Notes under the pieces: generated by a model
The model's database searches: none
Told to the model about the DNA's origin: nothing
What the model saw: the letters and a program-made list of their open reading frames with translations, nothing else
DNA from: Lentimicrobiaceae bacterium
Lineage (GTDB): Bacteria; Bacteroidota; Bacteroidia; Bacteroidales; UBA4417
NCBI GenBank assembly: GCA_033809755.1
Contig: JAPXLB010000002.1
Span: 64,486-128,485 of the forward strand
Direction: 5' to 3'
DNA length: 64,000 nucleotides
Shown: positions 2,475 through 54,610 of the stretch, piece after piece
How the letters are laid out: every line of letters begins with the position of its first letter
Position numbering within the stretch: the first letter of the stretch is position 1
Position numbers and translations under genes: made by a program

Positions 2475-4736
2475 ATGAATATTAATCTTTTAAAGTTTGT
2501 TTCTATAACTATACTTTGGCTATTTGGTATTAGCTCATTTGCTCAAAACCTAACAATCGTAAAAGATAACAAATCCGATTACGTTATTATTGTTCCTCAA
2601 ACGGCTAGCCAGTCGGATATCACTGCAGCCGAATATTTGCAGGAATATATTTTTAAATCAACAGGGGTGGTTGTTCCGAGTCTGCAAGAAACCGAACAGC
2701 AGAGCCAAAACATAATTAGCATCGGAAATACTTTGTTGCTTAACAAAACAAATAATAAAACCAAAGACAGCTATCAAGAAGATGAGTTTCAAGTATTTGC
2801 CCATAACAACAACTTATATTTTGTAGGTGGTACAGATAAAGGAACTCTGTACGGAGTTATTGAATTTATTGAAAAGTATTTAAACTCGTACGTATTGGCT
2901 CCCGATGTGGAAATTGTAGCTGAGCTCAATGAGATTATTATTCCCGAAAATATTAATTTGAGTGACAAACCCTACAATGTTTTCAGAAACGTAAACGGAA
3001 GATTTGTTGACAACGAAAAGTACAAAAATTGGATGCGTTTGGATAATGTTTACGAAGTTTTCGGAAACAACTACTACGTCCACACATTCAATAACCTTAT
3101 CCCTTGGGAAAAATATTTTAAATTATATCCCGAATTATACGCGTACTACAACAATAAGCATAATCCCACTCAATTATGTTTATCTAATCCTGAAGTGTTA
3201 AACCGAGCAATAACCAAATTAAAACATGAAATGTTTAAACAACCCGACCGTAAATATTGGTCGGTGAGTCAAAACGATAACGACTCTTATTGCAAGTGCG
3301 AAAAATGTACTCGAACGATTGAAAAAGAGGGCAGTCCTTCGGGTTTGCTCCTGCAGTTTGTCAACAAAATTGCAGCCGAATTTCCCGATAAAGTCATATC
3401 AACATTAGCATACAGCTACACTCGCAAAGCCCCGAAATACACAAAGCCCGCTAAAAACGTTCAAATCGTTTTGTGTACTATTGAGTTAAACAGAAGCATG
3501 CCTATTGCCGAAGATCCTTCAAGTGCAAGTTTTGTCGAAGATATAAAGCAATGGTCGGCACTGACCGATAATATTATGATATGGGATTACACAGTCGATT
3601 TTGCTCATTTTTCTTATCCTTTCCCAAATTTGCACGTTTTGCAACCCAACATTAAGTTTTTTAATGAATACAATGTAAAATCTCATTTTCAGCAGACTAA
3701 CACGCTTATAGGGCACGAAATGTCCGAACTTAAAAGTTATTTAATATCTCGTCTCTTGTGGAATCCTGATATTAATTTCGATTCGACAAAACGAGTTTTT
3801 ATTGAGAAATACTTTGGCGATGCGTCAAGCTACATCTTGAAATATGTAAATACTTTAGAAAAAGAACTTCTGAAATCAGGCGAAAAACTCAATATATACG
3901 AGCATCCAACATCGCATGAAAACACCTTATATTCAGAAAAAAATCTGAAATATTACAACAAACTTTTCGACAAAGCCGAAAAAGCAGTGAAAAACAATCC
4001 GTATGTTTATCAACGTGTTAAGGTGGCTCGTCTGCCAATTCAGTACACTGCGATGGAAATTGGTAAAAAGCATTTGCTAGGCAAAAGGGGTTGGTACAAC
4101 AAGAAAAATAACGATTATATTATTAAAGACGAAATGCTTGCTGTACTTGAAGATTTTTACAGCACTTGTAAAAATAATAATGTCAGAAATCTCAACGAAT
4201 CGCGTCTTACTCCAAAGAAATACTACGATATGACTATGCGTTTCCTGCGCATATATACTAAAGATAACCATGCTTTTGAAAAGAAAATAACTTCAACAGT
4301 TGCTGCAAGCACTAAATATTCCAAAGGTGATTTGCAATTGCTAACAAATGGTGTTAGGGGTCCCAACGACTACAACGTACATTGGATAGGTTGGGAAAAC
4401 GAAGACACAAAACTGACTTTAGATTTGGAAAAAAATCTTTCTTTCGATAGCATAATAATTAGTTCAATGTATTATCCGCAAAGTTGGATACTGCATCCGC
4501 AGTCGATAGAGTGTTTAGTTTCGGAAGATGGTATTAACTACACATCTGTCGGCAAATATACGCCGGGATTAATTCAAAAGGAAGAAGAAAACATCAAAGA
4601 CTTCGTTTTTACAGGTAAATTTAATAATATAAAATACGTTAGTTTCGATGTTAAAGGCACGAAAACTTTACCCGATTGGCATTACGCTGCCGGCGGAAAA
4701 TCGTGGTTCTTTTTTGATGAGATTATTATCAAATAA
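2475..4736 (+). CDS. DUF4838-like secreted protein with C-terminal discoidin (F5/8 type C)-like domain
   Basis: Signal peptide. The N-terminus (LTIVKDNKSDYVIIVPQTAS...LYFVGGTDKGTLYGV) is typical of Bacteroidota DUF4838/GH-like proteins. The C-terminal ~150 aa look discoidin-like. Recognised by eye only. Confidence 0.55.
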   Translation: MNINLLKFVSITILWLFGISSFAQNLTIVKDNKSDYVIIVPQTASQSDITAAEYLQEYIFKSTGVVVPSLQETEQQSQNIISIGNTLLLNKTNNKTKDSYQEDEFQVFAHNNNLYFVGGTDKGTLYGVIEFIEKYLNSYVLAPDVEIVAELNEIIIPENINLSDKPYNVFRNVNGRFVDNEKYKNWMRLDNVYEVFGNNYYVHTFNNLIPWEKYFKLYPELYAYYNNKHNPTQLCLSNPEVLNRAITKLKHEMFKQPDRKYWSVSQNDNDSYCKCEKCTRTIEKEGSPSGLLLQFVNKIAAEFPDKVISTLAYSYTRKAPKYTKPAKNVQIVLCTIELNRSMPIAEDPSSASFVEDIKQWSALTDNIMIWDYTVDFAHFSYPFPNLHVLQPNIKFFNEYNVKSHFQQTNTLIGHEMSELKSYLISRLLWNPDINFDSTKRVFIEKYFGDASSYILKYVNTLEKELLKSGEKLNIYEHPTSHENTLYSEKNLKYYNKLFDKAEKAVKNNPYVYQRVKVARLPIQYTAMEIGKKHLLGKRGWYNKKNNDYIIKDEMLAVLEDFYSTCKNNNVRNLNESRLTPKKYYDMTMRFLRIYTKDNHAFEKKITSTVAASTKYSKGDLQLLTNGVRGPNDYNVHWIGWENEDTKLTLDLEKNLSFDSIIISSMYYPQSWILHPQSIECLVSEDGINYTSVGKYTPGLIQKEEENIKDFVFTGKFNNIKYVSFDVKGTKTLPDWHYAAGGKSWFFFDEIIIK

Positions 4737-4752
4737 TTTCTTAATTTTGTAG

Positions 4753-4760
4753 TATATTTG
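4753..4760 (+). promoter_or_regulatory. -7 box (TATATTTG) upstream of LysM gene
   Basis: Matches TAnnTTTG, 21 nt upstream of ATG 4781. Confidence 0.4.
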
Positions 4761-4780
4761 TCAGCAACAAAATTTATAAA

Positions 4781-6754
4781 ATGAAATTATCTGCAAAACT
4801 ATCAATTATATTGCTTCTTGCTTTCAATCTGTCGGCTATTCAGCTGTTTTCGCAAAATGTTAAAGTTGAAAAATCGACGATTATCGAATATTACAAAGGA
4901 AAGCCTTATTATATGCACTTTGTAAAAAAAGGAGAAACTATCGATAAAATTGCAGATGCATACCAAGTTACCGTTGAAGAAATTAGGCGAGAAAACGATT
5001 TTATGAAAGGCGAAGTTGCAGAATTTCAAGCTCTGAAAATACCTCAAAATCAGAAGAATACGACTTCAACTGTCGATGAGTCTAAGGAAACTAAAAGTGT
5101 AAAAGAAAAAAAGATAGTTGTTCCCGATTTTACTAAAACTACAGTCGATACCATACAAGAATTTGTTACTTACAAAGCCAAAAAACAAGATTCATTCGAC
5201 GGTATTGCCCGAAAATTTAATATTACTACCGAATCGTTGCTTAAGGCAAACCCAGACCTAAAAAGGCTCAAAAGAGGTACAATAGTTAATATTCCGCCTT
5301 CAAATAATTGGGTTTTGAAAACCGATGATAAAGTTGTTGAAAAACCAAAATTTCAGCAAAAAGATTCAGCAATAGTGGTCGTGCCCACAATCGACTCGCT
5401 TGTAATACAGCCCGAAATTCCTGAAAACTGTATCCTTGTCCAACCAAAGCAAACACTGTTCAGAATTTCAAATACGTACAATATTTCTATAGATTCGCTT
5501 ATTATACTCAATCCTCAACTCGAAAACGGCTTAAAAGCAGGTATGATACTAAAAATAAGACCCGACAAAGGTTCGGAAATTACTCCCGTATTTGAAATTG
5601 ATAAAAACAAAGACAGTTTTGTTCAAAATTTGTTAGAATCAGAGTACTACAATCCCCGAAATTTTGACAATATTTTTAAAGTTGCCTTGCTATTACCGTT
5701 TGATGTAGAAAATTATTCTGCATCAGAACAAGAAACAAGCAACCCTGAAAGCTCTTTTTATCAATTTATGCAGTTTTACGGTGGTTTTACACTTGCAGTT
5801 GATTCGCTAGTGAAAAATGGGCTTAAAATTAAATTATTCGTCTACGATGCAGACCAGCAGAAGGGAACCGGCAAAATTGAAGCAATTTTGAGAAAAGATG
5901 AAATGAAAAGTATGGACTTAATTGTTGGTCCGTTATTCATCCACACATTTTCAGTCGCAGCCAAATTTGCCCAACGATACGATATTCCTATAGTTAATCC
6001 CTTGTCGAAACGCGAAAATCTTACCAACGGAAACAGCCAAGTAATTAAAGTGCAACCGCTCTACAATTCAATAGGACAGGTTATAAGCAGCTATATCAAA
6101 AATAATTATTCGGAAACTGTAAATGTTATTTTAGTCGATAACAACGAAGCAAATTACAAGAACTGTATCAGCCAAATTACTAGCTCAGCAAATACTAATA
6201 GCAGATATTATACCACAACCTATTCAGTTGTTAGTTATAAAAATGGTGGCATTTCGGGAGTTGTTAGCAAACTTAAACCCAATATTAAAAACTTAATAAT
6301 TTACTTTACCAACGAAAAAGAAAATATTAAAGAGTTTGTTTCGCTTTTGTATTCCAGAAAAGGCAACTATATTATCGATTTAGCTGGCTTCGATGGATGG
6401 GATAAAACAGATATAAATACCAACTTCCTTAACGACTTTAATTATACACAGTTTGCGACTTATTATGTAAATCACGAGCTTCCTGAAGTTAAACATTTTA
6501 ACAACACATTTAAAGATAAATTCAACGCATTCCCAGTCGATAAACAGCTTCCGTACCTTGGCTATGATATTGGAATGTTTTTCTTAAATACGCTGTATCA
6601 TTTGGATTCTAAATACACCGATAGTTATAGTAATAACTACTATAAAGGATTATCGACAAACTTTTATTTTACCAAAAGTAGCCCTAATAATGGATTAGAA
6701 AATTACGGAATTAAAACGCTTAAATTATCTAATAATCAATTGATTGAGAAGTGA
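4781..6754 (+). CDS. LysM-repeat protein with C-terminal periplasmic-binding-protein (type 1)-like domain
   Basis: Signal peptide. Three LysM-like units (YMHFVKKGETIDKIADAYQVTVEEIRRENDF; YKAKKQDSFDGIARKFNITTESLLKANP; VQPKQTLFRISNTYNISIDSLIILNP), then a ~350-aa alpha/beta region. Confidence 0.7.
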   Translation: MKLSAKLSIILLLAFNLSAIQLFSQNVKVEKSTIIEYYKGKPYYMHFVKKGETIDKIADAYQVTVEEIRRENDFMKGEVAEFQALKIPQNQKNTTSTVDESKETKSVKEKKIVVPDFTKTTVDTIQEFVTYKAKKQDSFDGIARKFNITTESLLKANPDLKRLKRGTIVNIPPSNNWVLKTDDKVVEKPKFQQKDSAIVVVPTIDSLVIQPEIPENCILVQPKQTLFRISNTYNISIDSLIILNPQLENGLKAGMILKIRPDKGSEITPVFEIDKNKDSFVQNLLESEYYNPRNFDNIFKVALLLPFDVENYSASEQETSNPESSFYQFMQFYGGFTLAVDSLVKNGLKIKLFVYDADQQKGTGKIEAILRKDEMKSMDLIVGPLFIHTFSVAAKFAQRYDIPIVNPLSKRENLTNGNSQVIKVQPLYNSIGQVISSYIKNNYSETVNVILVDNNEANYKNCISQITSSANTNSRYYTTTYSVVSYKNGGISGVVSKLKPNIKNLIIYFTNEKENIKEFVSLLYSRKGNYIIDLAGFDGWDKTDINTNFLNDFNYTQFATYYVNHELPEVKHFNNTFKDKFNAFPVDKQLPYLGYDIGMFFLNTLYHLDSKYTDSYSNNYYKGLSTNFYFTKSSPNNGLENYGIKTLKLSNNQLIEK

Positions 6755-10651: not shown

Positions 10652-10736
10652 GGAGAGATGGCAGAGCGGTTGATTGCGGCGGTCTTGAAAACCGTTGACT
10701 GTAACAGGTCCGGGGGTTCGAATCCCTCTCTCTCCG
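10652..10736 (+). tRNA. tRNA-Ser (anticodon UGA)
   Basis: Acceptor stem GGAGAGA/TCTCTCC, anticodon loop CTTGAAA, long variable arm and T-loop GTTCGAATC. Folded by eye. Confidence 0.9.
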
Positions 10737-13221: not shown

Positions 13222-13229
13222 TAACTTTG
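13222..13229 (+). promoter_or_regulatory. -7 box (TAACTTTG) upstream of SPFH gene
   Basis: Matches TAnnTTTG, 65 nt upstream of ATG 13294. Confidence 0.4.
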
Positions 13230-13293
13230 CTTTGAAGTAACAAACACAAAAATTAAATATATAAATTTGAAAATTTTTAAAACTTTGTAGACT

Positions 13294-14427
13294 ATGGCAT
13301 TATTTGACAAAATTAAACAAAAAGCATTCGCTGAATTTATTGACATCATCGAATGGACTGACGAGACGAGCGACACCATAATCTGGCGTTTTCCACGTTA
13401 TAATGCGGAAATAAAAAATGGAGCTCAACTCACCGTACGCGAAACTCAAGTAGCCGTATTGGTAAACGAAGGACAGTTTGCCGACGTGTATCAACCGGGA
13501 CGTTATGAACTAACTACTGCAAACATGCCCATTCTTACTACATTAAGAGGATGGAAATACGGATTTAATTCTCCTTTCAAGGTAGATGTTTATTTCGTAA
13601 ACACTAAACAGTTTTTGAATCAACGTTGGGGAACAGCTAATCCGATAATGATGCGCGACCCTGAGTTCGGACCAATTCGTATGCGTGCATTTGGTTCGTA
13701 CAACTTCAAGGTACAACCCGACCCAATACCGTTTATCCGCAATGTAGCAGGAACTAGCGGTGAATTTACCACCGAAGGTATTAGCGAACAACTTCGCAAT
13801 TTTGTTATTACCAAATTTACCGACTATTTGGCAGAATCTAAAATTGCTGCATTAGATTTAGCTGCTAATCTCAATGAATTTTCCAATGACCTCACGATAG
13901 CTCTAAAAGACGATTTCGCTGAATATGGTATAGAACTTACTCGCTTTTTGGTAGAAAATATTTCGTTGCCCGAAGCTGTTGAAGAAGCTCTTGATAAACG
14001 CACAAGCATGGGTGTTATTGGCAATATGACAACTTACACTCAAATGCAGTTTGCCGATTCGCTTAAAGATGCTGCAAACAATCCAGCTGGAGGTGGAAAT
14101 CTTGCAGGCGACGCTATGGGAGCTGGTATAGGACTTGCTATGGCAGGACAAATGGCACAACAAATGGTAAATCCGCAAGGTGGACAGCAACAACAAGTTG
14201 GAGCTACACCTCCACCGCCACCAATACCGACGCAAGTTATGTATCACGTTGCTATCAATGGAGTGCAACAAGGACCTTTCAACATGCAACAGTTAAGTCA
14301 AATGGTTCAACAAGGACAAATAACTGCCGATACATTGGTATGGACACAAGGAATGGCTAACTGGTCAGCTGCAAGTTCGGTAGCCGAATTATCACAATTA
14401 TTCAATGCGCCTCCACCATTACCATAA
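13294..14427 (+). CDS. SPFH/band-7 family protein (YdjI/COG4260-like) with C-terminal GYF_2-like domain flanked by proline tracts
   Basis: The N-terminus (MALFDKIK...IEWTD...IIWRFP...I.NGAQLTVRETQVAV) is typical of the COG4260 SPFH subgroup. It is followed by a Gly/Gln-rich linker, PPPPPIP, a GYF_2-like unit (YHVAINGVQQGPFNMQQLSQMVQQGQITADTLVWTQGMANWSAASSV) and a terminal APPPLP. Confidence 0.75.
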   Translation: MALFDKIKQKAFAEFIDIIEWTDETSDTIIWRFPRYNAEIKNGAQLTVRETQVAVLVNEGQFADVYQPGRYELTTANMPILTTLRGWKYGFNSPFKVDVYFVNTKQFLNQRWGTANPIMMRDPEFGPIRMRAFGSYNFKVQPDPIPFIRNVAGTSGEFTTEGISEQLRNFVITKFTDYLAESKIAALDLAANLNEFSNDLTIALKDDFAEYGIELTRFLVENISLPEAVEEALDKRTSMGVIGNMTTYTQMQFADSLKDAANNPAGGGNLAGDAMGAGIGLAMAGQMAQQMVNPQGGQQQQVGATPPPPPIPTQVMYHVAINGVQQGPFNMQQLSQMVQQGQITADTLVWTQGMANWSAASSVAELSQLFNAPPPLP

Positions 14428-14497
14428 ATAAATGAATGAATTAACACACAACTACTAAATAATAAAATTAAATTATAAACTTTAAAAACAAAACATC

Positions 14498-14869
14498 ATG
14501 AAACAAATTTTTGAAATTTTTAAAAACGTTGTAACAAAAAATTATGCAAACTTCAAAGGCAGAGCCGATAGAAGAGAATTCTGGTCATTCGTGCTAGTAA
14601 TGATTATTATTAATGTTATATTTAGCATATTAACAAACATATCTGGAGGAGTAAAAGCTCTTTATTGGATATTCCTAATCCTTCAAATAATAGTTTCGTT
14701 AGCTTTACTATTACCATCATTAGCTGTAGGTGTTCGTCGTATGCACGATATTGGTAAAGGTGGCGGATGGATTTTTATCAACTTGTTGCCTATTATAGGC
14801 TCACTTTGGTTCTTAATCCTAACTATAAAACCAAGCGAAGAAGGAGAAAACAGATTTGATAATAAGTAA
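14498..14869 (+). CDS. DUF805 family inner-membrane protein
   Basis: 123 aa, with GRADRREFWSF..., three TM segments and the VGVRRMHDIGKGGGW motif typical of DUF805 (YhaH/YhaI-like). Confidence 0.75.
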   Translation: MKQIFEIFKNVVTKNYANFKGRADRREFWSFVLVMIIINVIFSILTNISGGVKALYWIFLILQIIVSLALLLPSLAVGVRRMHDIGKGGGWIFINLLPIIGSLWFLILTIKPSEEGENRFDNK

Positions 14870-14878
14870 AAATTATTT

Positions 14879-14908
14879 GATAGAGACGTGGAAAAACACG
14901 TCTCTATC
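14879..14908 (+). terminator. perfect 12-bp stem-loop between DUF805 and zinc-ribbon genes (terminator/attenuator or RNA processing site)
   Basis: GATAGAGACGTG-GAAAAA-CACGTCTCTATC. No clear T-run follows. Confidence 0.45.
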
Positions 14909-14927
14909 AATTTTATAAAATCAAAAT

Positions 14928-16013
14928 ATGGATATCAATACACAACCTATAACCGATATTTTGCAAACCAAGTGTAAATCATGTGGTGGTTATATGCAAT
15001 ATTCTCCTGCCGACGAAGACTTAAAATGTCTTTACTGCGGATACAAAGGCGGATTAGATAAAACTCCTGTACAAATTAAAGAAAATGATTTTGGATACTG
15101 GAAAAATCGTGCCGACGAAGAAAATAACGAAGAGGTAATAGAAATTCCGGAAATAAAATGCCGTCAGTGTGGTGCAACAACTACATTGCCCGAAAACACA
15201 TCGGCTGCAAAATGTGCTTTTTGTGGCACTCCGCTGATTATGAATGAAGCATCGGTGAAACGCTTCTGGCAGCCCGAATATCTCTTGCCTTTCAAGGTGA
15301 CTGAAAAAGCAAGCAGAGAAAACTTTAAAAAATGGTTGGGTAAGAAGTGGTTTCTGCCAACACAGCTTAAAAAGTATGGTACAACAACCGATAGCTTTAA
15401 AGGAGTGTATCTGCCATTTTGGACTTACGATGCTGATACACACACCGATTACACAGGTCAGCGAGGTAAACATAGAACCGAAGTATCACGCAATAGTAAA
15501 GGCGAAGAAGTACGCCGTACCGTTACCGACTGGTACTATACTAGCGGTAGTGTTAATGTTTCATTCGACGACATTGTAGTACCCGCATCAAAATCGCTTC
15601 CCGATAGTATTACGAAAAAACTTACCAACTGGGACATGATGAACTGCGTTGGATATAAAAAAGAGTTTTTGGCAGGATTTCTTACCGAAATATACCAAAG
15701 AGATTTTCGTGAAGCAATAGATGATGCTAAAGATAAAATGGAAATTGTAATTGAAGATTCTATTAAAGTTGATATCGGTGGCGACGATCAAAGAATTGAT
15801 TCAAAACGCATACAGTACAATAACATAAAATTTAAACACCTGCTGCTCCCTGTTTGGATTAGCGCATTTAAATTTAACAATAAGGTATACCAGTTTGTTG
15901 TAAACGCACGTACCGGAAAAGTAATTGGGCAATATCCTAAAGACAAGACTAAGATTGCAATGCTAGTGATAACTATTATAGCTATTATTGTAGCCTTAGC
16001 TATGATTTTTTAA
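14928..16013 (+). CDS. double zinc-ribbon protein with C-terminal TM anchor (YdjG-like architecture)
   Basis: Two CxxC...CxxC units (CKSCGG..CLYCGY; CRQCGA..CAFCGT), a conserved ~230-aa body (LLPVWISAF...VNARTGKVIGQYP) and a terminal TM (IAMLVITIIAIIVALAMIF). Confidence 0.55.
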   Translation: MDINTQPITDILQTKCKSCGGYMQYSPADEDLKCLYCGYKGGLDKTPVQIKENDFGYWKNRADEENNEEVIEIPEIKCRQCGATTTLPENTSAAKCAFCGTPLIMNEASVKRFWQPEYLLPFKVTEKASRENFKKWLGKKWFLPTQLKKYGTTTDSFKGVYLPFWTYDADTHTDYTGQRGKHRTEVSRNSKGEEVRRTVTDWYYTSGSVNVSFDDIVVPASKSLPDSITKKLTNWDMMNCVGYKKEFLAGFLTEIYQRDFREAIDDAKDKMEIVIEDSIKVDIGGDDQRIDSKRIQYNNIKFKHLLLPVWISAFKFNNKVYQFVVNARTGKVIGQYPKDKTKIAMLVITIIAIIVALAMIF

Positions 16014-16108
16014 AATAAATAATTAATTATGAGAGCAAGGAAAAATAAAAATACAATACTGATTTACAAATTCTTGCTCTCAATTTTTAACTTTTAACTT
16101 TTTATTAT

Positions 16109-16693
16109 ATGGGTAAAAAAGTAATTATATGGTTCTCAATTTTTATACTTCTGTTGATTTTGGTTCCATTTGTATGGGGAACATACAACCGTTTGGTAAA
16201 AAGAGAAGAAGCCGTTAAAATGGCATGGGCTCAAGTAGAAAATCAATATCAAAGACGTGCCGATTTGATTAAAAATTTAGTAGAAACCGTGAAAGGATAC
16301 GCTACACACGAACAAGAAACACTAACACAAGTAATTGAAGCTCGCGCTAAGGCAACTCAAGTTAATATTGATGCCGACAACCTAGATGCTGAGAGTTTGC
16401 AGCAATTTAGCAATGTGCAAGGCGAGCTATCGCAAGCTCTTTCAAGGTTGTTGGCTGTTGTTGAAAACTATCCCGACCTAAAAGCTGCCGACAACTTCAT
16501 TCTGCTACAAGGACAACTTGAAGGCACCGAAAATCGTATTGCTTTTGTGCGTAGAGAATTTAACGAGACAGTTAATAAATACAATACATACCGACGTCGA
16601 TTCCCGAAAAACATAGTTGCCTTGGTGTTCGGTTTTGCTAAGAAAGATTATTTCGAAGCATATGATAACACTACGCCAGATGTTCAATTCTAA
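16109..16693 (+). CDS. LemA family protein
   Basis: An N-terminal TM followed by YNRLV...AWAQVENQYQRRADLIKNLVETVKGYA.HE..TL, the hallmark LemA sequence. Confidence 0.9.
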   Translation: MGKKVIIWFSIFILLLILVPFVWGTYNRLVKREEAVKMAWAQVENQYQRRADLIKNLVETVKGYATHEQETLTQVIEARAKATQVNIDADNLDAESLQQFSNVQGELSQALSRLLAVVENYPDLKAADNFILLQGQLEGTENRIAFVRREFNETVNKYNTYRRRFPKNIVALVFGFAKKDYFEAYDNTTPDVQF

Positions 16694-16733
16694 ATATGAT
16701 TAAAATTTAATATAAAATAAAACGAAAACAAAA

Positions 16734-17810
16734 ATGAAGATAATTAAAAAACTTAACCTAGTTCTTTTACTCTTACTTTCCGTCAGCATACAAGCTCAAA
16801 TGCGCTACACGGTAAGAGATGTTCCTAATGTACAATTAGAAGATTATACACGCTACGTAAGCGACCCTGAAAATGTTTTGGATATTGGAGATATTATTCT
16901 TTTAGACGAACGTCTGGCAGAATTTCGCGATTCATTAGATATTGAAGCTGCTATAGTTGTAATACCTGCAATAGACGTAGAGAAATACGGCTCAGCAAAA
17001 GATTTCGCTACCGAACTTTTCAACACTTGGGGTATAGGTAAAAAAGAAACTAACAATGGCTTGCTCATCTTACTTCTTACAGCAGATGGCGAACGCGAAA
17101 TTGTTTTTGAAACCGGACTAGGTACCGAACAGGTTCTTACCGACGGTTTATGTAAGCTCATTCAAACTAAAAAAATGGTACCGTATCTTAAAACAAGTGA
17201 TTACGGGGAAGGACTAATAGTTGGGCTAGAAGAGATTGAAAAAGTATTAAATGGCTCTTCCGAGTTCCTGAAAAGTGATTCTTCATCGAGCGGAATTGGC
17301 AAATATGTATTGATTTGGTTGATAGTTGGTTTCATTGTAATTGGTATTGTAGAGTCGGCAAGGAAAAAACGTGTAGTGGAAAGTGAAGATCCTTTTGTTG
17401 CCGCAGCTAATTATAAATCGCTCTCAGGTATAGGTTGTCTTATTGCAACCCTCTTTTTCGGTTCATATATAATTTATATGATTTATAAAGCCATAGCAAA
17501 AAAAGATGATATGCCACCTCTAAATTGCCAAAACTGCGGAGCTAAAGGCAAGGTTGTACTTAAAAACAAACCGCAAGTTGTACAAAAAGCCCTGCCAGAT
17601 CAAGACGGAATGAAACAGTATCACTACATTTGTAAAGCGTGTAATCATGGACACAAAGTACTTGTGCCTTATAAGTACGTAGCACCGCAAACGAGGTCAA
17701 GTGGAGGCGGAGGCTACAGCTCATATAGCGGCAGTAGTAGCTCAAGCAGCAGAGGTGGCTCATGGGGTGGTGGAAGAAGCGGAGGAGGAGGCGCTAGTAC
17801 AAAATTCTAG
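16734..17810 (+). CDS. TPM-domain (YgcG-like) membrane protein with inserted C4 zinc ribbon and Ser/Gly tail
   Basis: Signal peptide, then a TPM domain (VSDPENVL...AIVVIPAI...TWGIGKKETNNGLLILLL...REIVFETGLG), two TMs, CQNCG...CKACNH, and the tail ...GGSWGGGRSGGGGASTKF. Confidence 0.8.
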   Translation: MKIIKKLNLVLLLLLSVSIQAQMRYTVRDVPNVQLEDYTRYVSDPENVLDIGDIILLDERLAEFRDSLDIEAAIVVIPAIDVEKYGSAKDFATELFNTWGIGKKETNNGLLILLLTADGEREIVFETGLGTEQVLTDGLCKLIQTKKMVPYLKTSDYGEGLIVGLEEIEKVLNGSSEFLKSDSSSSGIGKYVLIWLIVGFIVIGIVESARKKRVVESEDPFVAAANYKSLSGIGCLIATLFFGSYIIYMIYKAIAKKDDMPPLNCQNCGAKGKVVLKNKPQVVQKALPDQDGMKQYHYICKACNHGHKVLVPYKYVAPQTRSSGGGGYSSYSGSSSSSSRGGSWGGGRSGGGGASTKF

Positions 17811-18693: not shown

Positions 18694-19764
18694 ATGAAAA
18701 AACTATTTATCCCATTACTGTGCACAATGTTATTACTTAACATGAGTGTACAAGCACAAAAGAAAGAAAAAGTAATCCTCGACACCGACATGGTTGAAGT
18801 ATTTGACGATGGTATCACCATGATGATGCTAGCTAAAGCTCCCAATATCGATTTATTAGGTGCAACTATTGTTGTAGGAAATACTTGGGTCAATGAAGGA
18901 ATTGCTTATGCCATTCGCCAATTGGAAGCTATAGGAAGATCTGATATTCCTGTTGTACCTGGCATTCGTCAACCTATTTATCCTAGCCGTTTCGAGACTA
19001 TTAAAAATGAACGTATCCTCTTTGGTATCGGCGATGCATACGTTGGAGCCGCAGGTTATCCTGAACCTAAATCTTGGCAATCGGTTTATCTACAAAAATA
19101 TGGTACCGAGCCTAAGGTAAAACCATTGGAAATGAAAGCCGTGAACTTTATCATCGAACAGGTAAAGAAAAATCCGAACGAAATAACTATTATAGCTATA
19201 GGCACATGTGTAAACTTGGCTACTGCCGTTCGTATTGCTCCCGAAATAGTTCCGCTTATCAAACGTGTAATATACATGGGTGGTTCTTTCTTCAAACCGG
19301 GCAACACCACACCTACAGCTGAGTTCAACTGGTGGATGGACCCGGAAGCTGCAAAAATGTGCTTACGTACACCTTTCAAAGAACAAATTATTGTTGGATT
19401 AGACGTTTGCGAAAAAATGCCATTCCGTAAAGATAGGTACGAAGAAATTATTTCTATTACAAAAAATCCTGAACTTGTAAATATGCTTAATCGCAATTTC
19501 CTAAAAACTTTGTACATCGAAAACCCCGACTATGTACACTACATTTGGGACGTTATTGCAGGTGCAATCATGATTGACCCAACACTTATTACCGAAGAAG
19601 TTACTCGTTACGTCGACGTTAACTCACAATTCGGTTTCTCGTACGGGCAATCTGTTGCTTTTGAGCATAATCAACCTATTGGTACGCAACAAGCACGTAT
19701 AATACTTACTGTTGACAGCGATCGTTTGTGGAAAATGGTTGAAGACTACTGTAGAAACTTTTAA
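18694..19764 (+). CDS. nucleoside hydrolase (IU-NH family) with signal peptide
   Basis: The N-terminal Asp cluster ILDTDMVEVFDDGITMMM corresponds to the DxDxxxDD calcium/ribose-binding motif. It is preceded by a cleavable-looking signal (LLLNMSVQAQ). Confidence 0.75.
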   Translation: MKKLFIPLLCTMLLLNMSVQAQKKEKVILDTDMVEVFDDGITMMMLAKAPNIDLLGATIVVGNTWVNEGIAYAIRQLEAIGRSDIPVVPGIRQPIYPSRFETIKNERILFGIGDAYVGAAGYPEPKSWQSVYLQKYGTEPKVKPLEMKAVNFIIEQVKKNPNEITIIAIGTCVNLATAVRIAPEIVPLIKRVIYMGGSFFKPGNTTPTAEFNWWMDPEAAKMCLRTPFKEQIIVGLDVCEKMPFRKDRYEEIISITKNPELVNMLNRNFLKTLYIENPDYVHYIWDVIAGAIMIDPTLITEEVTRYVDVNSQFGFSYGQSVAFEHNQPIGTQQARIILTVDSDRLWKMVEDYCRNF

Positions 19765-20678: not shown

Positions 20679-21206
20679 ATGATAAAAAAAATTAACATTG
20701 TAATTATTATGTGTGCAGCACTGGTACTGTCTGGCTGTGGCAACAATTCCAAAAAAGCCTCGTCAACTGTAAAATCCGAAAAAGAATTGCTTTCTGCAAG
20801 CAATGAAAGTCTTGCAAAAATGATTGTAACAATTTACGATGAAAGCATGGCTGAAATGGTTAAAATACTTGAAAAGTATCCGCAGGCAAACGATGAAATG
20901 AAAGTAGAGTTTGAAAATCTTTACGAAGCTACAGTGCAAAAACTTTTACCTATAGGTAAAGTAATTGACCAAAAAGATGATGCAACTAAAGATGAAATCG
21001 GTTCGCTTACCTTCGTGGATGTTGTTAGATTGGAAATGCCACAAAAAGCAATTGACCTATATAATCCTCGCATGAGTGAAATTAGAGAATTTGACAGCGA
21101 GCTTAATAGCAAAATGGTAGCCATGAACATTATTACTCAGTATGCCTTTTTCGATTTACTAAAAAAACAAAACCCCGAAGAAGCTGAAAGATTAGGAATT
21201 GAATAG
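20679..21206 (+). CDS. hypothetical lipoprotein
   Basis: Lipobox VLSGCGN. Helical-looking, with no recognisable domain. Confidence 0.5.
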   Translation: MIKKINIVIIMCAALVLSGCGNNSKKASSTVKSEKELLSASNESLAKMIVTIYDESMAEMVKILEKYPQANDEMKVEFENLYEATVQKLLPIGKVIDQKDDATKDEIGSLTFVDVVRLEMPQKAIDLYNPRMSEIREFDSELNSKMVAMNIITQYAFFDLLKKQNPEEAERLGIE

Positions 21207-23181: not shown

Positions 23182-26100
23182 ATGAACTCAAAAATTTTTA
23201 AACTCACAGTCATTTTAAATGTAATAGCAATAATAGCTTTTACAGGTTGTAAAAAAGCGCGTCTACAAGAAGTAGATCCGGCTTTTTGTCAGTATATTTC
23301 AGCATTTACTTATGGCGGAATATCAACTGACTCATACATCCAAATTGAGCTTATCAACGAACTTCCGGCGGTTGAGCTTAATTCAGAGGTTAAAGACAAA
23401 ATATTTGATTTTTTACCGTCTATTAAAGGAACAACACAATGGATAAACTCTAACACTATAAGGTTTACACCCGATCCAAATGAGTTGAAACCCGGTACCA
23501 AGTACAAAGCTTCATTTTATTTGGATAAAATTCTGAAAGTAGAGAAGAAGTTTAAAAATTTTAAATTCGGTTTCTTCGTACTCGAACAAAACTTCAGGTA
23601 CGACATAATGCCTTATTCACCTGTGAGCAACAGTCAGCTCGAAAATAATAAAGTTGAAATTTCTCTTCAAATTGCAAATCCTGCCTCCGAAGAAGAAGTA
23701 AAACAAATGTTTAAAATAGATAACAGTAGCGACAATGTTGCTGTTAGCACGGTAAGTAGAAACACATTTCTAGTTACTTTAAACAACCTACCTCGTGGTC
23801 AGAAAGATAATATTATTAAACTTAAAATCGATGGCAAAGCAATTGGAGCTAATAAAGTAGTTGACGAAGAAATTTTAATTCCGGCAATGTCTATAAACAA
23901 CTATTCGGTTGTCGACGTAAGAATGATGCACGATGCCGACCCGCATATCAGAATTACTTTTAGCGACCCAATAGAACCCGACCAGGCTATAGAAGACCTC
24001 ATAAAACCGGTAGGTATAGGCTTTTTTACTTATAATATCGACAAGAATGTCATTCGTATTTATCCTGAAGTAATTCCAAGCTACGATATAGAAGTTGAAA
24101 TTAAAGCCTCTTTAAAAAATATAAATAATCTGTACCTTGATAACAATTACAAGTTCGACCTTAAAGTTAAGGCTTTAGATCCTAAAATAAAGTTCGAAAA
24201 TGAAGGCAATATTCTTCCAAATGCCGATCAATTAAAAATTCAATTCTCGGCTGTTAATCTGTGGGCTGTTGATGTTAGCGTGATAAAAATTTACAAGAAT
24301 AATATCTTATATTATATGCAGTCTAATTCCATAGATGATTCGTATCAAAGTGAACTACGTCGCTTTGGAAGATTGGTTATGAAAAAACGTATCAGACTTG
24401 ATGAAGATAAGAGCCTTGATTTAAGCAAGCCCAACACCTTCGACTTAGACCTTTCTACAATGTTTAACCAAGACCCTGGAGCCTTGTACATGGTAAAACT
24501 ATCAATGAAACACGAGTATTCTGCATATCCTTGCGCAGGCTCTAATCCTCGTTCAATAGAAGATGATAAAAACCAAAGTTCTTTTTCAAACATTACTGAA
24601 GAAGAAAACGCTGTTTGGGATGTACAAAGCTCCTATTATTACGAACACACCGACTGGAGCGAGTATAATTGGGAGGAAAGCGACGACCCATGCAAACCCT
24701 CATATTATATTGGATCGGGTACGTCTGTGAAAAAGATTTTAATGGCTTCTAATATCGGAATGATTGCAAAACTTTCCGACAATAATACTGTTACCGTGGC
24801 AGTTACCAATATTGTTTCAACCAATCCAATTTCGGGAGCAAGTGTTAAACTTTATAACTATCAACTTCAGGAAATAGGAAGCGGAAAAACCAACAGCGAC
24901 GGACTTGTTGATATTGAGTTTGAATACAGTCAGCCGTTTGTTATTTCGGCAACCAAAGGTGATGATATTGGATACCTTGACATGAAAAACGAATCTTCAT
25001 TGTCGTTGAGCCGTTTCCAAGTTGATGGCAAACAATTGCAAAAAGGACTTAAAGGTTATATCTACGGTGAAAGAGGAATCTGGCGTCCCGGAGATACAAT
25101 TCACCTCACTTTTATTCTTGAAGATAAAGAGAAAAAACTTCCGAAATCTCACCCCGTTGTGCTTGAAGTTTATACACCTTTCAGACAACTTTACCACAGA
25201 GAAGTGCAAACCGAAGGCGTAAACGGATTTTATAATTTCAAATTTGCAACCGACCCGTCAGTTACAACCGGAACATGGCAATCGTATATTAAAGTTGGAG
25301 GAGCTAGTTTTTATAAAGCCCTTAATATTGAAACCATAAAACCCAATAGATTAAAAATCAACTTAATTTGCGATTCTATTATCAATGCAAGCAACAATAC
25401 ATTTACAGGTAGGCTTAATGCTCAATGGCTACACGGTTCTCCTGCAGTAAATTTGAAGTCTGAAGTAGAACTAACTTTATCTAGGACAAGCAGACCATTT
25501 CCAGCATACAAAGATTATGAATTCAACAATCCTTTGATAAAATTCAGCGACGTAACATATACAGTTTTTGATGGTCTACTTAATTCAGTAGGTTCGGCAC
25601 AAATTAGCACCAAACTAGTAATGTCGGAAAATGCTCCGGGTATGCTTAAAGGTAATATTCTGTCGAAAGTTTACGAAGCCGGCGGAGATATGAGTTTTTA
25701 CTCTCAATCGGTAATGTACTCTCCATATTCATCATACGTTGGAATTAAAACTCCGAGGAATGGCAACAGTAGATATTTGGAAACCGACAAGCCAATAGTT
25801 TTCGATATTGCAACTCTTAATATGTACGGAGAAAAAGTTAGCAGAAACCAATTGGAATACAAGGTTTACAAACTAAAATGGAGTTGGTGGTGGAGTACTT
25901 CGTACGAAAACTTAAGTTCATACACGAATAATACAGCTGTTGTACCACTAGCAACCGGAACAATATCTACACAAAACGGAGTAGGTAAGGTTAACTTTCA
26001 GGTAGATTATCCGGAGTGGGGAAGATACCTGATTCTTGTAAAAGACCCTGTTAGCGGACACACTGCGGGCAATATTTTTTACGTTGATTGGCCCGACTGG

Positions 26101-28752
26101 AGAGGAAAATCGGCTAAAACCGACCCCGAAGGCTTGACAATGCTCTCATTTTCAACCGATAAAGAAACTTATAAAGTTGGCGAAGAAGTTAGCGTTATAA
26201 TTCCAAAAAGTTCAAACGGTAGAGCTCTTGTTAGCTTAGAAAAAGGTTCTAGAGTTTACAGCAAGCAATGGGTAAAAACTTCCGATACGGAAGACACAAA
26301 ATATACCTTTAAAGTTACAGATGAAATGACACCTAACATTTACATCTTCATTTCATTGCTTCAACCGCATAGTCAAACTTCTAACGACTTGCCTATCAGG
26401 CTTTATGGCGTTGTAAATATCAACGTTGAAAATGATAACAGCAAGTTATCGCCTAAAATTGCAATGCCTGACGAATTAAAACCCGAAACGGATTTTGATG
26501 TTACAATTTCTGAAACAAACGGTAAACCAATGACTTATACCCTTGCAGTTGTTGATGAAGGTCTGCTAGATATTACAGGATTCAGAACTCCCAACGCTTG
26601 GAGCGAATTTTACAGCAAAGAAGCTTTAAGCGTTCGTACTTGGGACTTATTCGATAAAGTTATCGGTGCTCATGGTCAAGCTGTTGGACCATTACTCAAC
26701 ATTGGTGGAGACGAAGCTCTTAAGGGCTCAAGCAACAAAGTTAACAGATTTAAACCTGTTGTCAGATTTTTAGGACCATTCACCGTTAAGGCTAACGGGA
26801 AAAACACTCATAAAATTACAATGCCGCAATATGTTGGTTCAGTCAGAGTTATGGTTGTTGCCGGCTACGAAGGAGCTTACGGAAGTGCTGAAAAAACTGT
26901 TCCTGTTAAAAATGCGTTGATGACAATCTCTACATTGCCAAGAGTATTAGGACCAAAAGAAGAAGTACTATTACCTGTAAACGTTTTTGCTATGAGTCCG
27001 CATGTTAAAAATGTAACTGTTTCGGTAGAAACCGAAGGATTACTCAAAGCAACGGAAGGCAGCTCACAACAAGTAACATTTAATAATACAGGCGATAAAA
27101 TATTATACTTCAAATTAAAATCTTCGGCAAAAACAGGCGTTGAGCAAGTTAAAATTAAAGCAACGGGTGGAGGCGAGTCTTCTAACGAAGTTATTAATAT
27201 TGAAATTAGAAATCCAAATCCGCCTACTGTTAAAAGTCAAGGAATATTTATAGACGAAAACTCTACTGTAACACTAAATGTCAAAACTGACGAAGTTTCG
27301 CCTTACGACTGGACTAAACTAGAAGTTTCTCGTTTCCCTTCGGTAAACTTAACTAAAAACTACAATTACTTGCTTGATTGTGAGTTTACCAGCAGCGAAC
27401 ACTTGACTTCCAGAGCGTTCCCGCTATTATACATCGATAAGTTTGATGAAATAAGTGATGATGATAAGAAGAAATACGATGAAATTATTACACAAAGTAT
27501 CAAAAACTTATCGTTAAGACAATTATCGGACGGCGGATTTAAGTTCTGGTCAACAAACACTTATTCAAATGAATGGGTTTCAACATACGCCGGACACTTT
27601 TTAGTTGAAGCTAAAAATAAAGGCTACGATGTTCCTAATAAGATTTTGAATAATTGGACGAAATATCAGCAAAAACTTGCACGCAACTGGACACATACTA
27701 CTACCTCGACAAGTTATTATAGTATAAATATGACTGAATTGCAACAGGCATACCGTCTATACACACTTGCGCTACACGGAAAAGCAGAACAAGGTGCAAT
27801 GAACCGAATGAAAGAAATTAAAGACTTGTCATTGCAAGCTAAATGGCGTCTTGCAGCAGCTTACGCTATTATTAATAAAACCAAAATTGCAAACGATATT
27901 GTTTTTAAATTAGATGATAAAGTCAGCGATTACGAAAGCAATAATAATACTTACGGAAGCTCGACTAGAGACCATGCAATGATAATGGAAACATACTTGC
28001 TACTCGGAAAAACCGATAAAGCTATGGAACTTGCATTTAGCGTATCCGACAGGTTGTCATCTAATTACGCATCTTCGCAAGAAACAGCGTTCGGACTTAT
28101 TGCTATGGCAAAATTAGCTGACAAAATGGGACAGGGAAATATAAATGCTGAGTGGACTGTTAACGACAAGAAAATGAAAGATATTCACACTCCAAAACCG
28201 TTCTATCAGCATAGTATTAATCCCGATACAAGTATTACTGTTCAAATTACCAACAAAGGAAACAATAAGATATTTGCAAGACTAACTTCGCAAACTATTC
28301 CTATTGAAGATGATTTCGTTCCTGAAAACACTTCGTTAAATCTTACGGTTGCATATACCGATAAACTCGGCAAACCGATAGACATTACAAAACTAAAACA
28401 AGGTACGGAGTTCACTGCGACTGTTACCATAGAAAACACGTCGCACTTCAACTTTAACAATGTTGTGCTTGCACAAATATTCCCTTCGGGTTGGGAAGTG
28501 TATAATGAAGGTTTAATGAACAGCACATATAACAATGACCGCAATTCTTACTACATAAATCACAGAGACTTCCGCGACGATAGGGTTCTGACTTATTTTG
28601 ACATATATTCAGGCAAAAAAATACAAGTTTCGGTTAATTTGCAAGCAGCATATCGTGGTAAGTATTATTTGCCTGCTACTGTTTGTCAAGTGCTTTATAA
28701 TCCTACTGAGCAAGGTAGAAGTCAAGGAAAGTGGGTAGAAGTTGTCAACTAA
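23182..28752 (+). CDS. alpha-2-macroglobulin family lipoprotein (thioester motif absent)
   Basis: 1856 aa, lipobox AFTGCKK, MG-domain-like repeats, and a thioester-domain-like region (...FPLLYI...LRQLSDGGFKFWS...EWVSTYAGHFLVEAKNKGYDVP). There is no C-x-E-Q anywhere. The aligned site reads S-S-E-H at 27391-27402. Confidence 0.85.
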   Translation: MNSKIFKLTVILNVIAIIAFTGCKKARLQEVDPAFCQYISAFTYGGISTDSYIQIELINELPAVELNSEVKDKIFDFLPSIKGTTQWINSNTIRFTPDPNELKPGTKYKASFYLDKILKVEKKFKNFKFGFFVLEQNFRYDIMPYSPVSNSQLENNKVEISLQIANPASEEEVKQMFKIDNSSDNVAVSTVSRNTFLVTLNNLPRGQKDNIIKLKIDGKAIGANKVVDEEILIPAMSINNYSVVDVRMMHDADPHIRITFSDPIEPDQAIEDLIKPVGIGFFTYNIDKNVIRIYPEVIPSYDIEVEIKASLKNINNLYLDNNYKFDLKVKALDPKIKFENEGNILPNADQLKIQFSAVNLWAVDVSVIKIYKNNILYYMQSNSIDDSYQSELRRFGRLVMKKRIRLDEDKSLDLSKPNTFDLDLSTMFNQDPGALYMVKLSMKHEYSAYPCAGSNPRSIEDDKNQSSFSNITEEENAVWDVQSSYYYEHTDWSEYNWEESDDPCKPSYYIGSGTSVKKILMASNIGMIAKLSDNNTVTVAVTNIVSTNPISGASVKLYNYQLQEIGSGKTNSDGLVDIEFEYSQPFVISATKGDDIGYLDMKNESSLSLSRFQVDGKQLQKGLKGYIYGERGIWRPGDTIHLTFILEDKEKKLPKSHPVVLEVYTPFRQLYHREVQTEGVNGFYNFKFATDPSVTTGTWQSYIKVGGASFYKALNIETIKPNRLKINLICDSIINASNNTFTGRLNAQWLHGSPAVNLKSEVELTLSRTSRPFPAYKDYEFNNPLIKFSDVTYTVFDGLLNSVGSAQISTKLVMSENAPGMLKGNILSKVYEAGGDMSFYSQSVMYSPYSSYVGIKTPRNGNSRYLETDKPIVFDIATLNMYGEKVSRNQLEYKVYKLKWSWWWSTSYENLSSYTNNTAVVPLATGTISTQNGVGKVNFQVDYPEWGRYLILVKDPVSGHTAGNIFYVDWPDWRGKSAKTDPEGLTMLSFSTDKETYKVGEEVSVIIPKSSNGRALVSLEKGSRVYSKQWVKTSDTEDTKYTFKVTDEMTPNIYIFISLLQPHSQTSNDLPIRLYGVVNINVENDNSKLSPKIAMPDELKPETDFDVTISETNGKPMTYTLAVVDEGLLDITGFRTPNAWSEFYSKEALSVRTWDLFDKVIGAHGQAVGPLLNIGGDEALKGSSNKVNRFKPVVRFLGPFTVKANGKNTHKITMPQYVGSVRVMVVAGYEGAYGSAEKTVPVKNALMTISTLPRVLGPKEEVLLPVNVFAMSPHVKNVTVSVETEGLLKATEGSSQQVTFNNTGDKILYFKLKSSAKTGVEQVKIKATGGGESSNEVINIEIRNPNPPTVKSQGIFIDENSTVTLNVKTDEVSPYDWTKLEVSRFPSVNLTKNYNYLLDCEFTSSEHLTSRAFPLLYIDKFDEISDDDKKKYDEIITQSIKNLSLRQLSDGGFKFWSTNTYSNEWVSTYAGHFLVEAKNKGYDVPNKILNNWTKYQQKLARNWTHTTTSTSYYSINMTELQQAYRLYTLALHGKAEQGAMNRMKEIKDLSLQAKWRLAAAYAIINKTKIANDIVFKLDDKVSDYESNNNTYGSSTRDHAMIMETYLLLGKTDKAMELAFSVSDRLSSNYASSQETAFGLIAMAKLADKMGQGNINAEWTVNDKKMKDIHTPKPFYQHSINPDTSITVQITNKGNNKIFARLTSQTIPIEDDFVPENTSLNLTVAYTDKLGKPIDITKLKQGTEFTATVTIENTSHFNFNNVVLAQIFPSGWEVYNEGLMNSTYNNDRNSYYINHRDFRDDRVLTYFDIYSGKKIQVSVNLQAAYRGKYYLPATVCQVLYNPTEQGRSQGKWVEVVN

Positions 28753-54538: not shown

Positions 54539-54610
54539 GGTCCGTTCGTCTAGGGGTTAGGACGTCAGGTTTTCATCCTGGTAACAGGGGTTCGATTCCC
54601 CTACGGACTG
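54539..54610 (+). tRNA. tRNA-Glu (anticodon UUC)
   Basis: Acceptor GGTCCGT/ACGGACT, anticodon loop TTTTCAT and T-loop GTTCGATTC. Folded by eye. Confidence 0.9.

Follow-up and report, generated by a model that had tools for sequence, protein, structure and literature searches.

The sole experimental handle on SPFH proteins of the YdjI type is the PspA-YdjGHI system of Bacillus subtilis (Scholz et al. 2021, PMC8581546). There, YdjI and PspA depend on YdjG and YdjH for their localisation at the membrane, and YdjH interacts with YdjI as well as with PspA (PMC8581546). Published architectures (Ravi et al. 2024, PMC11237479) give YdjG two zinc ribbons, a YpeB-like domain and a transmembrane (TM) segment, and make YdjH a TPM membrane protein whose tail is of low complexity. 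We examined a cluster of five genes at positions 13294-17810 of a 64 kb stretch of DNA from a Lentimicrobiaceae bacterium (the window; all coordinates are window positions, and identifiers beginning with L denote the related loci with which it was compared). The cluster encodes an SPFH protein with a GYF domain (gene 1), a DUF805 protein (gene 2), a YdjG-like protein (gene 3), LemA (gene 4) and a TPM protein (gene 5). The LemA, TPM, DUF805 and Band_7_1 families are among the commoner bacterial membrane-protein families without an assigned function. The B. subtilis-type pspA-ydjG-ydjH-ydjI locus used as comparator (L002) is a metagenome locus retrieved via a primer sequence published in PMC8581546, and its YdjH is a TPM protein according to Pfam.

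The cluster is probably a composite, made up of a PspA-less pair of the YdjI/YdjG type (genes 1 and 3, module A), a LemA gene followed by a TPM gene (genes 4 and 5, module B) and the loosely linked DUF805 gene. Each of the two modules occurs alone elsewhere. The five open reading frames (ORFs) all lie on the + strand and are separated by gaps of 70, 58, 95 and 40 bp, exactly as recorded in an earlier note made from the sequence of the window. The family calls in that note were also borne out, namely a Band_7_1/COG4260-type SPFH domain with GYF, DUF805, LemA and TPM by Pfam, and two CxxC..CxxC pairs in gene 3. The G+C content of the cluster is uniform with that of its surroundings, and its closest relatives are in metagenome-assembled genomes (MAGs) labelled Lentimicrobiaceae or Bacteroidales.

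The likeness to the B. subtilis system lies in the presence of a soluble Band_7_1 SPFH protein, a beta-rich TM protein with two ribbons and a membrane TPM protein, and genes 1 and 3 are homologous in sequence to YdjI and YdjG (E ~1e-38 for each). Judged by their domains, genes 1, 3 and 5 cover the set found in the YdjI/YdjG/YdjH triad. The earlier note had set TPM apart from the Ydj system and recognised two of the three partners. As YdjH is itself a membrane TPM protein, the cluster has putative counterparts of all three. The two loci differ in gene order, which is A-G-H-I in B. subtilis and I…G-LemA-H here, and in the presence of pspA, which is part of the B. subtilis operon and is found neither in the cluster nor in the whole 64 kb. 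LemA and DUF805 are additions here.

Gene 1 (13294-14427, +, 377 aa) encodes a soluble SPFH protein of the YdjI type, with a Band_7_1 domain (nt 13381-14016, +; Pfam E=3e-92, 308 bits against a gathering cutoff of 24) and a GYF_2 domain (nt 14242-14391, +; E=9e-22). It also matches Pfam Band_7 (E=1.4e-15). In direct comparison, gene 1 and the B. subtilis-type YdjI are 30 % identical over 257 aa of the SPFH domain (E=3e-38), which upholds the YdjI-like assignment made previously. The C-termini differ: YdjI ends in a zinc ribbon (Zn_ribbon_3), whereas gene 1 ends in GYF_2 with flanking PPPΦP motifs. The first of these, PPPPPIP (residues 306-312; nt 14209-14229, +), is separated from Band_7_1 by a Gly/Met-rich linker, and the second, PPPLP (residues 373-377; nt 14410-14424, +), is at the C-terminus. 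This arrangement is highly conserved, with (T/A)PPPΦP before the GYF domain and (V/M)PPPΦP at the extreme C-terminus in 62 of the 63 homologues that combine SPFH and GYF, which come from many phyla.

A Kyte-Doolittle scan found no hydrophobic segment in gene 1, and the same is true of YdjI. Of the five products said to be membrane-associated, those of genes 2 to 5 have hydrophobic segments, and for that of gene 1 membrane association is suggested only by analogy with YdjI. Having no anchor of its own, the gene 1 protein would have to be attached to the membrane through partners, as YdjI is. The SPFH/Band 7 domain is common to gene 1, HflK/C, the flotillins FloA and FloT, and stomatin/NfeD systems. 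Unlike these classical SPFH scaffolds, gene 1 is without a TM or hairpin anchor, a long coiled-coil region and an NfeD partner.

The GYF region of gene 1 matches the structure of the GltJ/AgmX GYF domain (7Z3C, E=3e-7). GltJ is part of the Myxococcus gliding machinery, where it carries a switch composed of a zinc ribbon, a linker and a GYF domain (Attia et al. 2024, PMC11135422). Its bacterial GYF domain has been found by experiment to bind a proline-rich sequence, and GYF domains are often paired with zinc ribbons as switch modules (PMC11135422). Because the GltJ domain binds such a sequence and the gene 1 domain matches it, the PPPΦP motifs that flank the GYF domain are candidate self-ligands or docking sites. 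Both systems thus contain a bacterial GYF domain and zinc ribbons. However, the two are in one protein in GltJ and on two separate proteins here, and, unlike in GltJ, the candidate proline ligands are within the GYF protein itself and there is no link to motility or MglA.

Gene 3 (14928-16013, +, 361 aa) encodes a predicted tail-anchored protein. Whether it should be compared to YdjG had been left as a question for profile searches, and direct comparison (BLASTP) with the B. subtilis-type YdjG gave 26 % identity over essentially the full length (residues 11-344 versus 2-316, E=1e-38). Zinc ribbon 1 (C16/19/34/37; nt 14973-15038, +) and zinc ribbon 2 (C78/81/96/99; nt 15159-15224, +) are formed by the two CxxC..CxxC pairs, and all eight cysteines are invariant in 54 homologues. 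Hydropathy identified a single hydrophobic segment, at the extreme C-terminus (TM helix, nt 15954-16010, +). No Pfam family scored above the cutoff, and the weak matches were to ribbons of the ribosomal S27e type and to PepSY (E=0.004, residues 311-336). The AlphaFold2 model (mean predicted local distance difference test score, pLDDT, 85.6; predicted template modelling score 0.80) has two small ribbons, a large domain with beta-strands of about 30 residues and a terminal TM helix (residues 340-360). No relatives in the Protein Data Bank (PDB) were found by sequence search, and Foldseek returned no significant match. Low-probability Foldseek matches to beta-pore-forming toxins (TM-score ~0.1) were read as an effect of the long beta-hairpins and not as a sign of homology. 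For the YpeB/NTF2-like fold that has been described for the C-terminal domain of YdjG (Ravi et al. 2024), the searches yielded only the weak PepSY match and no significant PDB structure. The homologues of gene 3 fall into more than 4,000 clusters.

Gene 5 (16734-17810, +, 358 aa) encodes a TPM membrane protein (Pfam TPM_phosphatase, PF04536, E=3.5e-27), with a signal-like N-terminus, the TPM domain (nt 16857-17243, +), two further hydrophobic segments and a zinc-ribbon-like Cys4 domain (C265/268/300/303; nt 17526-17642, +). In the AlphaFold2 model (mean pLDDT 81.6), the TPM domain is followed by two hydrophobic helices, the Cys4 unit, which forms a confidently predicted small beta domain, and, beyond a disordered Gly/Ser linker, an ordered tail. 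The best Foldseek match to the TPM domain was PG_0361 of Porphyromonas gingivalis (2KW7, E=3.7e-11, TM-score 0.85), followed by BA41, Psb32 and TLP18.3, and the Cys4 domain shows a weak likeness to the ribbons of NrdR and ZPR1. The Cys4 unit is invariant in 59 homologues and the cysteine motif was present in all 118 sequences examined. The C-terminal tail, GSWGGG..GGG.S..F, is likewise invariant in the 59 homologues; the last 40 residues correspond to nt 17691-17810. The tails of B. subtilis YdjG and YdjH are also Gly-rich, ending in GGGF and GSF, respectively. The overall layout of gene 5 (signal or TM segment, TPM domain, TM segment, Gly-rich tail) agrees with an anchor of the YdjH type. The window contains a second TPM-domain protein (40727-41974, +, 415 aa; Pfam E=7e-28), which has an N-terminal TM segment and two later hydrophobic segments and does not adjoin a LemA gene.

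Gene 4 (16109-16693, +, 194 aa) encodes LemA (Pfam PF04011, E=2e-58), with a single N-terminal hydrophobic segment followed by a helical-bundle domain, and matches the Thermotoga maritima LemA structure 2ETD (E=8.7e-44). Gene 2 (14498-14869, +, 123 aa) encodes a DUF805 protein (Pfam E=7e-31) with three hydrophobic segments.

The distribution of module A was determined from the relatives of gene 3. Scanning one genome per species identified at least 595, and the best 80 loci, from about ten phyla, were analysed. Their ORFs were annotated using iterated hidden Markov models (HMMs) seeded with the window and B. subtilis proteins. In 47 of the 80 loci, a gene for an SPFH+GYF protein is directly 5' of the YdjG-like gene on the same strand. 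It is elsewhere in the locus in a further 11 and absent from the flank in 18, and four loci were uninformative. Hence, the SPFH-GYF/YdjG-like pair was found within the locus in 58 of the 76 informative cases, and these span Bacteroidota, Proteobacteria, Acidobacteriota, Planctomycetota, Cyanobacteria, Spirochaetes and others. No other recurring neighbour family of the YdjG-like gene was found in the 80 loci, where the next largest cluster has seven members. A broadened TPM HMM and clustering of neighbours did not reveal a divergent TPM protein or any other partner near the pair in other phyla. Where the YdjG-like gene is solitary, the co-directional neighbours identified by Pfam were only unrelated housekeeping genes. 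LemA, TPM and DUF805 were found in just two of the 80 loci, which are the closest relatives. As LemA and TPM are near the pair in one clade only, the coupling is not general.

Module B is also found on its own. A LemA gene immediately followed by one or two TPM genes was present in all four annotated records examined (Parabacteroides, Polaromonas, Leptospira and Enterococcus, representing four phyla), consistent with the earlier statement that LemA-TPM pairs are widespread, and neither an SPFH nor a YdjG-like gene was detected near any of the four within flanks of ~4 kb. In Parabacteroides distasonis, the pair is WP_005857030/WP_005857032 and the LemA is 59 % identical to gene 4. The LemA and TPM genes are co-directional in these loci, as they are here. 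However, many LemA loci elsewhere include two TPM genes and the window cluster only one, and it is only here and in the one clade that the pair is found directly 3' of a YdjG-like gene. More distant homologues of gene 5 (41-42 % identity) are in TPM-TPM arrays that follow a CtpB-like peptidase and have no LemA.

No PspA-like ORF was detected in the window when a single B. subtilis PspA was used as the query (best phmmer E=0.31), in agreement with the earlier note. None was found in any of the 80 YdjG-like loci (flanks of about 8 kb). With relaxed thresholds, a search of 104 sources recovered PspA only from two B. subtilis-type loci, though with a single query a very divergent homologue could be missed. 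Bacteroidota can encode PspA beside band-7 genes (PMC9239133), and we note that independence of the cluster from PspA is not inferable from 64 kb of one genome.

The two modules are joined in a single clade, which is centred on the Bacteroidales and has YdjG-like proteins that are at least 62 % identical to gene 3. Within it, the YdjG-like, LemA and TPM genes are strictly contiguous in the five lineages that carry the full set. The first lineage is the window together with a 94 % identical relative (L083), the second is Lentimicrobium (L085) and the third is Petrimonas sulfuriphila and its close relatives (L101, L003, L103 and L102). The remaining two are represented by MAGs labelled Fermentimonas (L088 and L046) and Kapaibacterium (L089 and L090). 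Relative to the window proteins, SPFH is 85-97 % identical, YdjG 63-94 %, LemA 67-92 % and TPM 47-89 %. The local G+C content ranges from 35 to 51 % and the upstream flanks differ. All five families are found within about 10 kb in four of the lineages. L094 (YdjG 62 % identical) has the pair adjacent and LemA 1.6 kb downstream, with no TPM gene. Porphyromonas canoris and L096 (53-54 %), as well as Prevotella, have the pair only.

The genes on the SPFH side are more variable. The interval between the SPFH and YdjG-like genes contains no genes in L089, only DUF805 in the window, a gene for a secreted 464-aa protein and DUF805 in L083, one secreted protein gene in L046 and L088, and two secreted paralogues and a lipoprotein of ~179 aa in Petrimonas and Lentimicrobium. 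DUF805 itself is 5' of SPFH in L046 and L088, 3' of TPM in L003 and L102 and absent from the flank in L085, L089 and L101. With the contents of this interval variable and DUF805 moving, the five-gene order is not conserved even in close relatives. YdjG-LemA-TPM is the stable core in the clade, and DUF805 is a loosely linked accessory gene. The proposal of one conserved five-gene unit, which presupposed that the genes are co-conserved in related genomes, is therefore not sustained: they largely are not, only the SPFH-GYF/YdjG-like pair is found across phyla, LemA and TPM join it in one clade, and DUF805 moves or is absent.

The secreted paralogues found between the SPFH and YdjG-like genes are 319-521 aa long and share an N-terminal motif, AQINLKKLGxQ(V/I)K, and some have a DUF1565/beta-helix region. 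The secreted proteins, with the lipoprotein where there is one, are encoded at 9237-12673 in L101, 4337-7921 in L085, 2694-6130 in L003 and 6124-7518 in L083. The secreted paralogue family is missing from the window. The lipoprotein is represented by a 175-aa homologue (20679-21206, +; E=1.1e-16 with an HMM made from three relatives) located 2.9 kb 3' of the TPM gene, and not directly 5' of the YdjG-like gene as in Petrimonas and Lentimicrobium. In L086 and L087, where the YdjG-like protein is 80 % identical, the 8 kb or so upstream yielded no SPFH gene. Positions 2712-6322 of these loci encode three paralogous coiled-coil proteins of ~380-390 aa, with weak apolipoprotein-, filament- and DUF948-like matches, and these are followed by a further gene, which in L087 encodes an OmpA-domain protein.

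The gaps in the cluster include two potential RNA structures (stability was compared to shuffled controls to obtain z-scores). A hairpin noted previously in the gap between DUF805 and the YdjG-like gene proved to be real, and is a perfect 14-bp stem-loop (14877-14910, +; -23.1 kcal/mol, z=-9.65). It is retained in L083 with a double change from G:C to A:T, and L085 has a related hairpin with an AGAGACG core 5' of its YdjG-like gene, though a different gene is upstream. The run of T residues after the stem is found only in the window. This structure could be a terminator, an attenuator or an RNA-stability element. The arms occur once in the window, and a repeated palindromic element was rejected on this basis. 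The second, a stem-loop with a T-rich tail in the gap between the YdjG-like gene and LemA (16030-16082, +; -15.9 kcal/mol, z=-4.46), is matched by hairpins in the same place in L083, where the stem carries double changes, and in L085 and L089. Both hairpins could act as partial terminators or RNA-stability elements, and with strong hairpins in two gaps a single uninterrupted transcript should not be assumed. No known RNA element was found in the gaps or leader using Rfam gathering thresholds.

The earlier note also placed the cluster behind a TAnnTTTG box at 13222. The box is present (13222-13229, +, TAACTTTG), as is a second (13262-13269, +, TAAATTTG), and both are candidate Bacteroidota -7 promoter elements within the 434-bp gap 5' of gene 1. 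However, chance alone would give 98 ± 10 copies of the motif in the window and 125 were counted, an enrichment of only ~1.3-fold, so the boxes are weak promoter evidence. None is found in the internal gaps of the cluster.

If the composite follows the B. subtilis precedent, the YdjG-like protein, and possibly the TPM protein, would hold SPFH oligomers at the inner membrane, on its cytoplasmic side. Self-association or the docking of partners may be mediated by the GYF domain with the proline motifs around it, and LemA and TPM may connect the SPFH scaffold to the membrane and the periplasmic side. The likely role would be in envelope stress or the maintenance of membrane proteins. In Flavobacterium columnare, lemA and a TPM gene are induced in an sppA mutant that its authors associate with a disturbance of membrane homeostasis (PMC13236525), and this lends weak support to a role in stress. 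A functional link between modules A and B is plausible, though not proven, because YdjG-LemA-TPM remains contiguous across diverged genomes and because TPM is tied to YdjG and YdjI in B. subtilis by interactions that have been shown experimentally.

Several observations weigh against this interpretation. The YdjG-like gene is solitary in 18 of the 76 informative loci, and LemA and TPM were not within 8 kb of the pair in 78 of the 80, that is, outside the one clade. The strong hairpins on either side of the YdjG-like gene mean that the modules could be separate transcription units. Gene 5 differs from YdjH in having a second hydrophobic helix and the Cys4 ribbon, and, by simple parity of the predicted segments, its Cys4 domain and tail would be periplasmic, whereas the tail of YdjH is cytoplasmic. 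Pairwise BLAST between gene 5 and YdjH over the TPM domain was not significant and orthology is therefore not claimed.

Alternatively, the two modules and DUF805 may have no functional connection, their adjacency in the clade being simply inherited synteny. The modules are each found alone and are separated by hairpins here, and the clade has other genes in common, including a 5'-nucleotidase gene (L085, L088 and L089) and the lipoprotein family, as would be expected of a syntenic block. We nevertheless consider this explanation rather unlikely, as YdjG-LemA-TPM has stayed contiguous while genes on the SPFH side were gained, lost and moved, in genomes with local G+C contents from 35 to 51 %, and TPM has been linked independently to YdjG and YdjI in B. 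subtilis, with experimentally demonstrated interactions.

A more ambitious model, which we regard as doubtful, is that the SPFH-GYF/YdjG-like pair is a widespread, self-contained scaffold that is free of PspA, with a GYF/zinc-ribbon switch split between two proteins and LemA as an effector in the clade. In such a switch, the GYF domain would bind its own PPPΦP motifs, either in cis or from one protomer to another, with the zinc ribbons of the tail-anchored partner modulating this binding. LemA, as a membrane-anchored helical bundle, would hold in the Bacteroidales clade the position that PspA holds in Bacillus. If true, this would give LemA-TPM pairs their first functional context.

That all five genes form one dedicated, PspA-independent operon, with DUF805 and LemA as obligate parts, is improbable and has largely been refuted by the neighbourhood data. 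The co-directional genes, the short gaps, the lack of an internal TAnnTTTG box, the lack of PspA in the window and the occurrence of all five families within about 10 kb in four lineages speak for such an operon. Against it, DUF805 is displaced or missing in related loci, as listed above, the cluster of even the 94 % identical relative contains the extra 464-aa gene, two of the gaps contain hairpins, the pair is without LemA, TPM and DUF805 in 78 of the 80 loci, and LemA-TPM is also found without the pair. Anti-phage defence or mobile-element cargo built around the SPFH protein is very improbable and was rejected, as none of the five proteins matched a PADLOC family at E<0.005 (two marginal matches, both to LemA, had E>0.005), no integrase or transposase gene is adjacent, the G+C content is uniform and the very strong conservation of SPFH in the clade fits a housekeeping function better.

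Neither the component families nor the Bacillus paradigm is new. In the literature searched, we found no description of a PspA-free SPFH/YdjG-like pair or of a function for LemA-TPM, and the PspA-free spread of the pair, the PPPΦP-GYF-PPPΦP signature and the clade-specific junction with LemA-TPM appear to be undescribed there. The YdjI/YdjG pair is broadly spread, and the sampled loci have no PspA gene within about 8 kb. TPM is linked to the pair in two distant phyla, in Bacillota and in the Bacteroidota clade, and LemA has been drawn into the YdjI/YdjG neighbourhood in one clade. Taken together, these three findings connect four poorly understood families in a concrete hypothesis that can be tested. 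The PPPΦP-GYF-PPPΦP arrangement offers mutagenesis a specific target, and P. sulfuriphila, which is cultured and has a complete genome, carries the extended version of the cluster (CP073276.1, around 2.13 Mb).

Some further features of the clade and of the window were recorded. The identities to the window proteins are incongruent between YdjG and TPM, at 81 and 70 % in L089, 63 and 74 % in L046 and 68 and 47 % in L085, which suggests very different evolutionary rates or recombination between the modules. In L102, LemA is split into two ORFs of 79 and 84 aa (14284-14901), so that either the gene is a pseudogene or the split stems from an error in assembly or a frameshift error. A Metallophos/5'-nucleotidase gene is within two genes 3' of TPM in L085 (12217-13908), L088 (8460-9965) and L089 (8624-10093), and an inosine-uridine nucleoside hydrolase gene occupies a similar position in the window (18694-19764) and in L083. 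Such neighbours may be there through shared synteny or through a connection with the metabolism of nucleotides or phosphate. The only Rfam matches in the window were two tRNA genes (10652-10736 and 54539-54610), both away from the cluster. Between positions 11957 and 54370, about 42 predicted genes follow one another on the + strand, and these include an ORF of 1856 aa (23182-28752).

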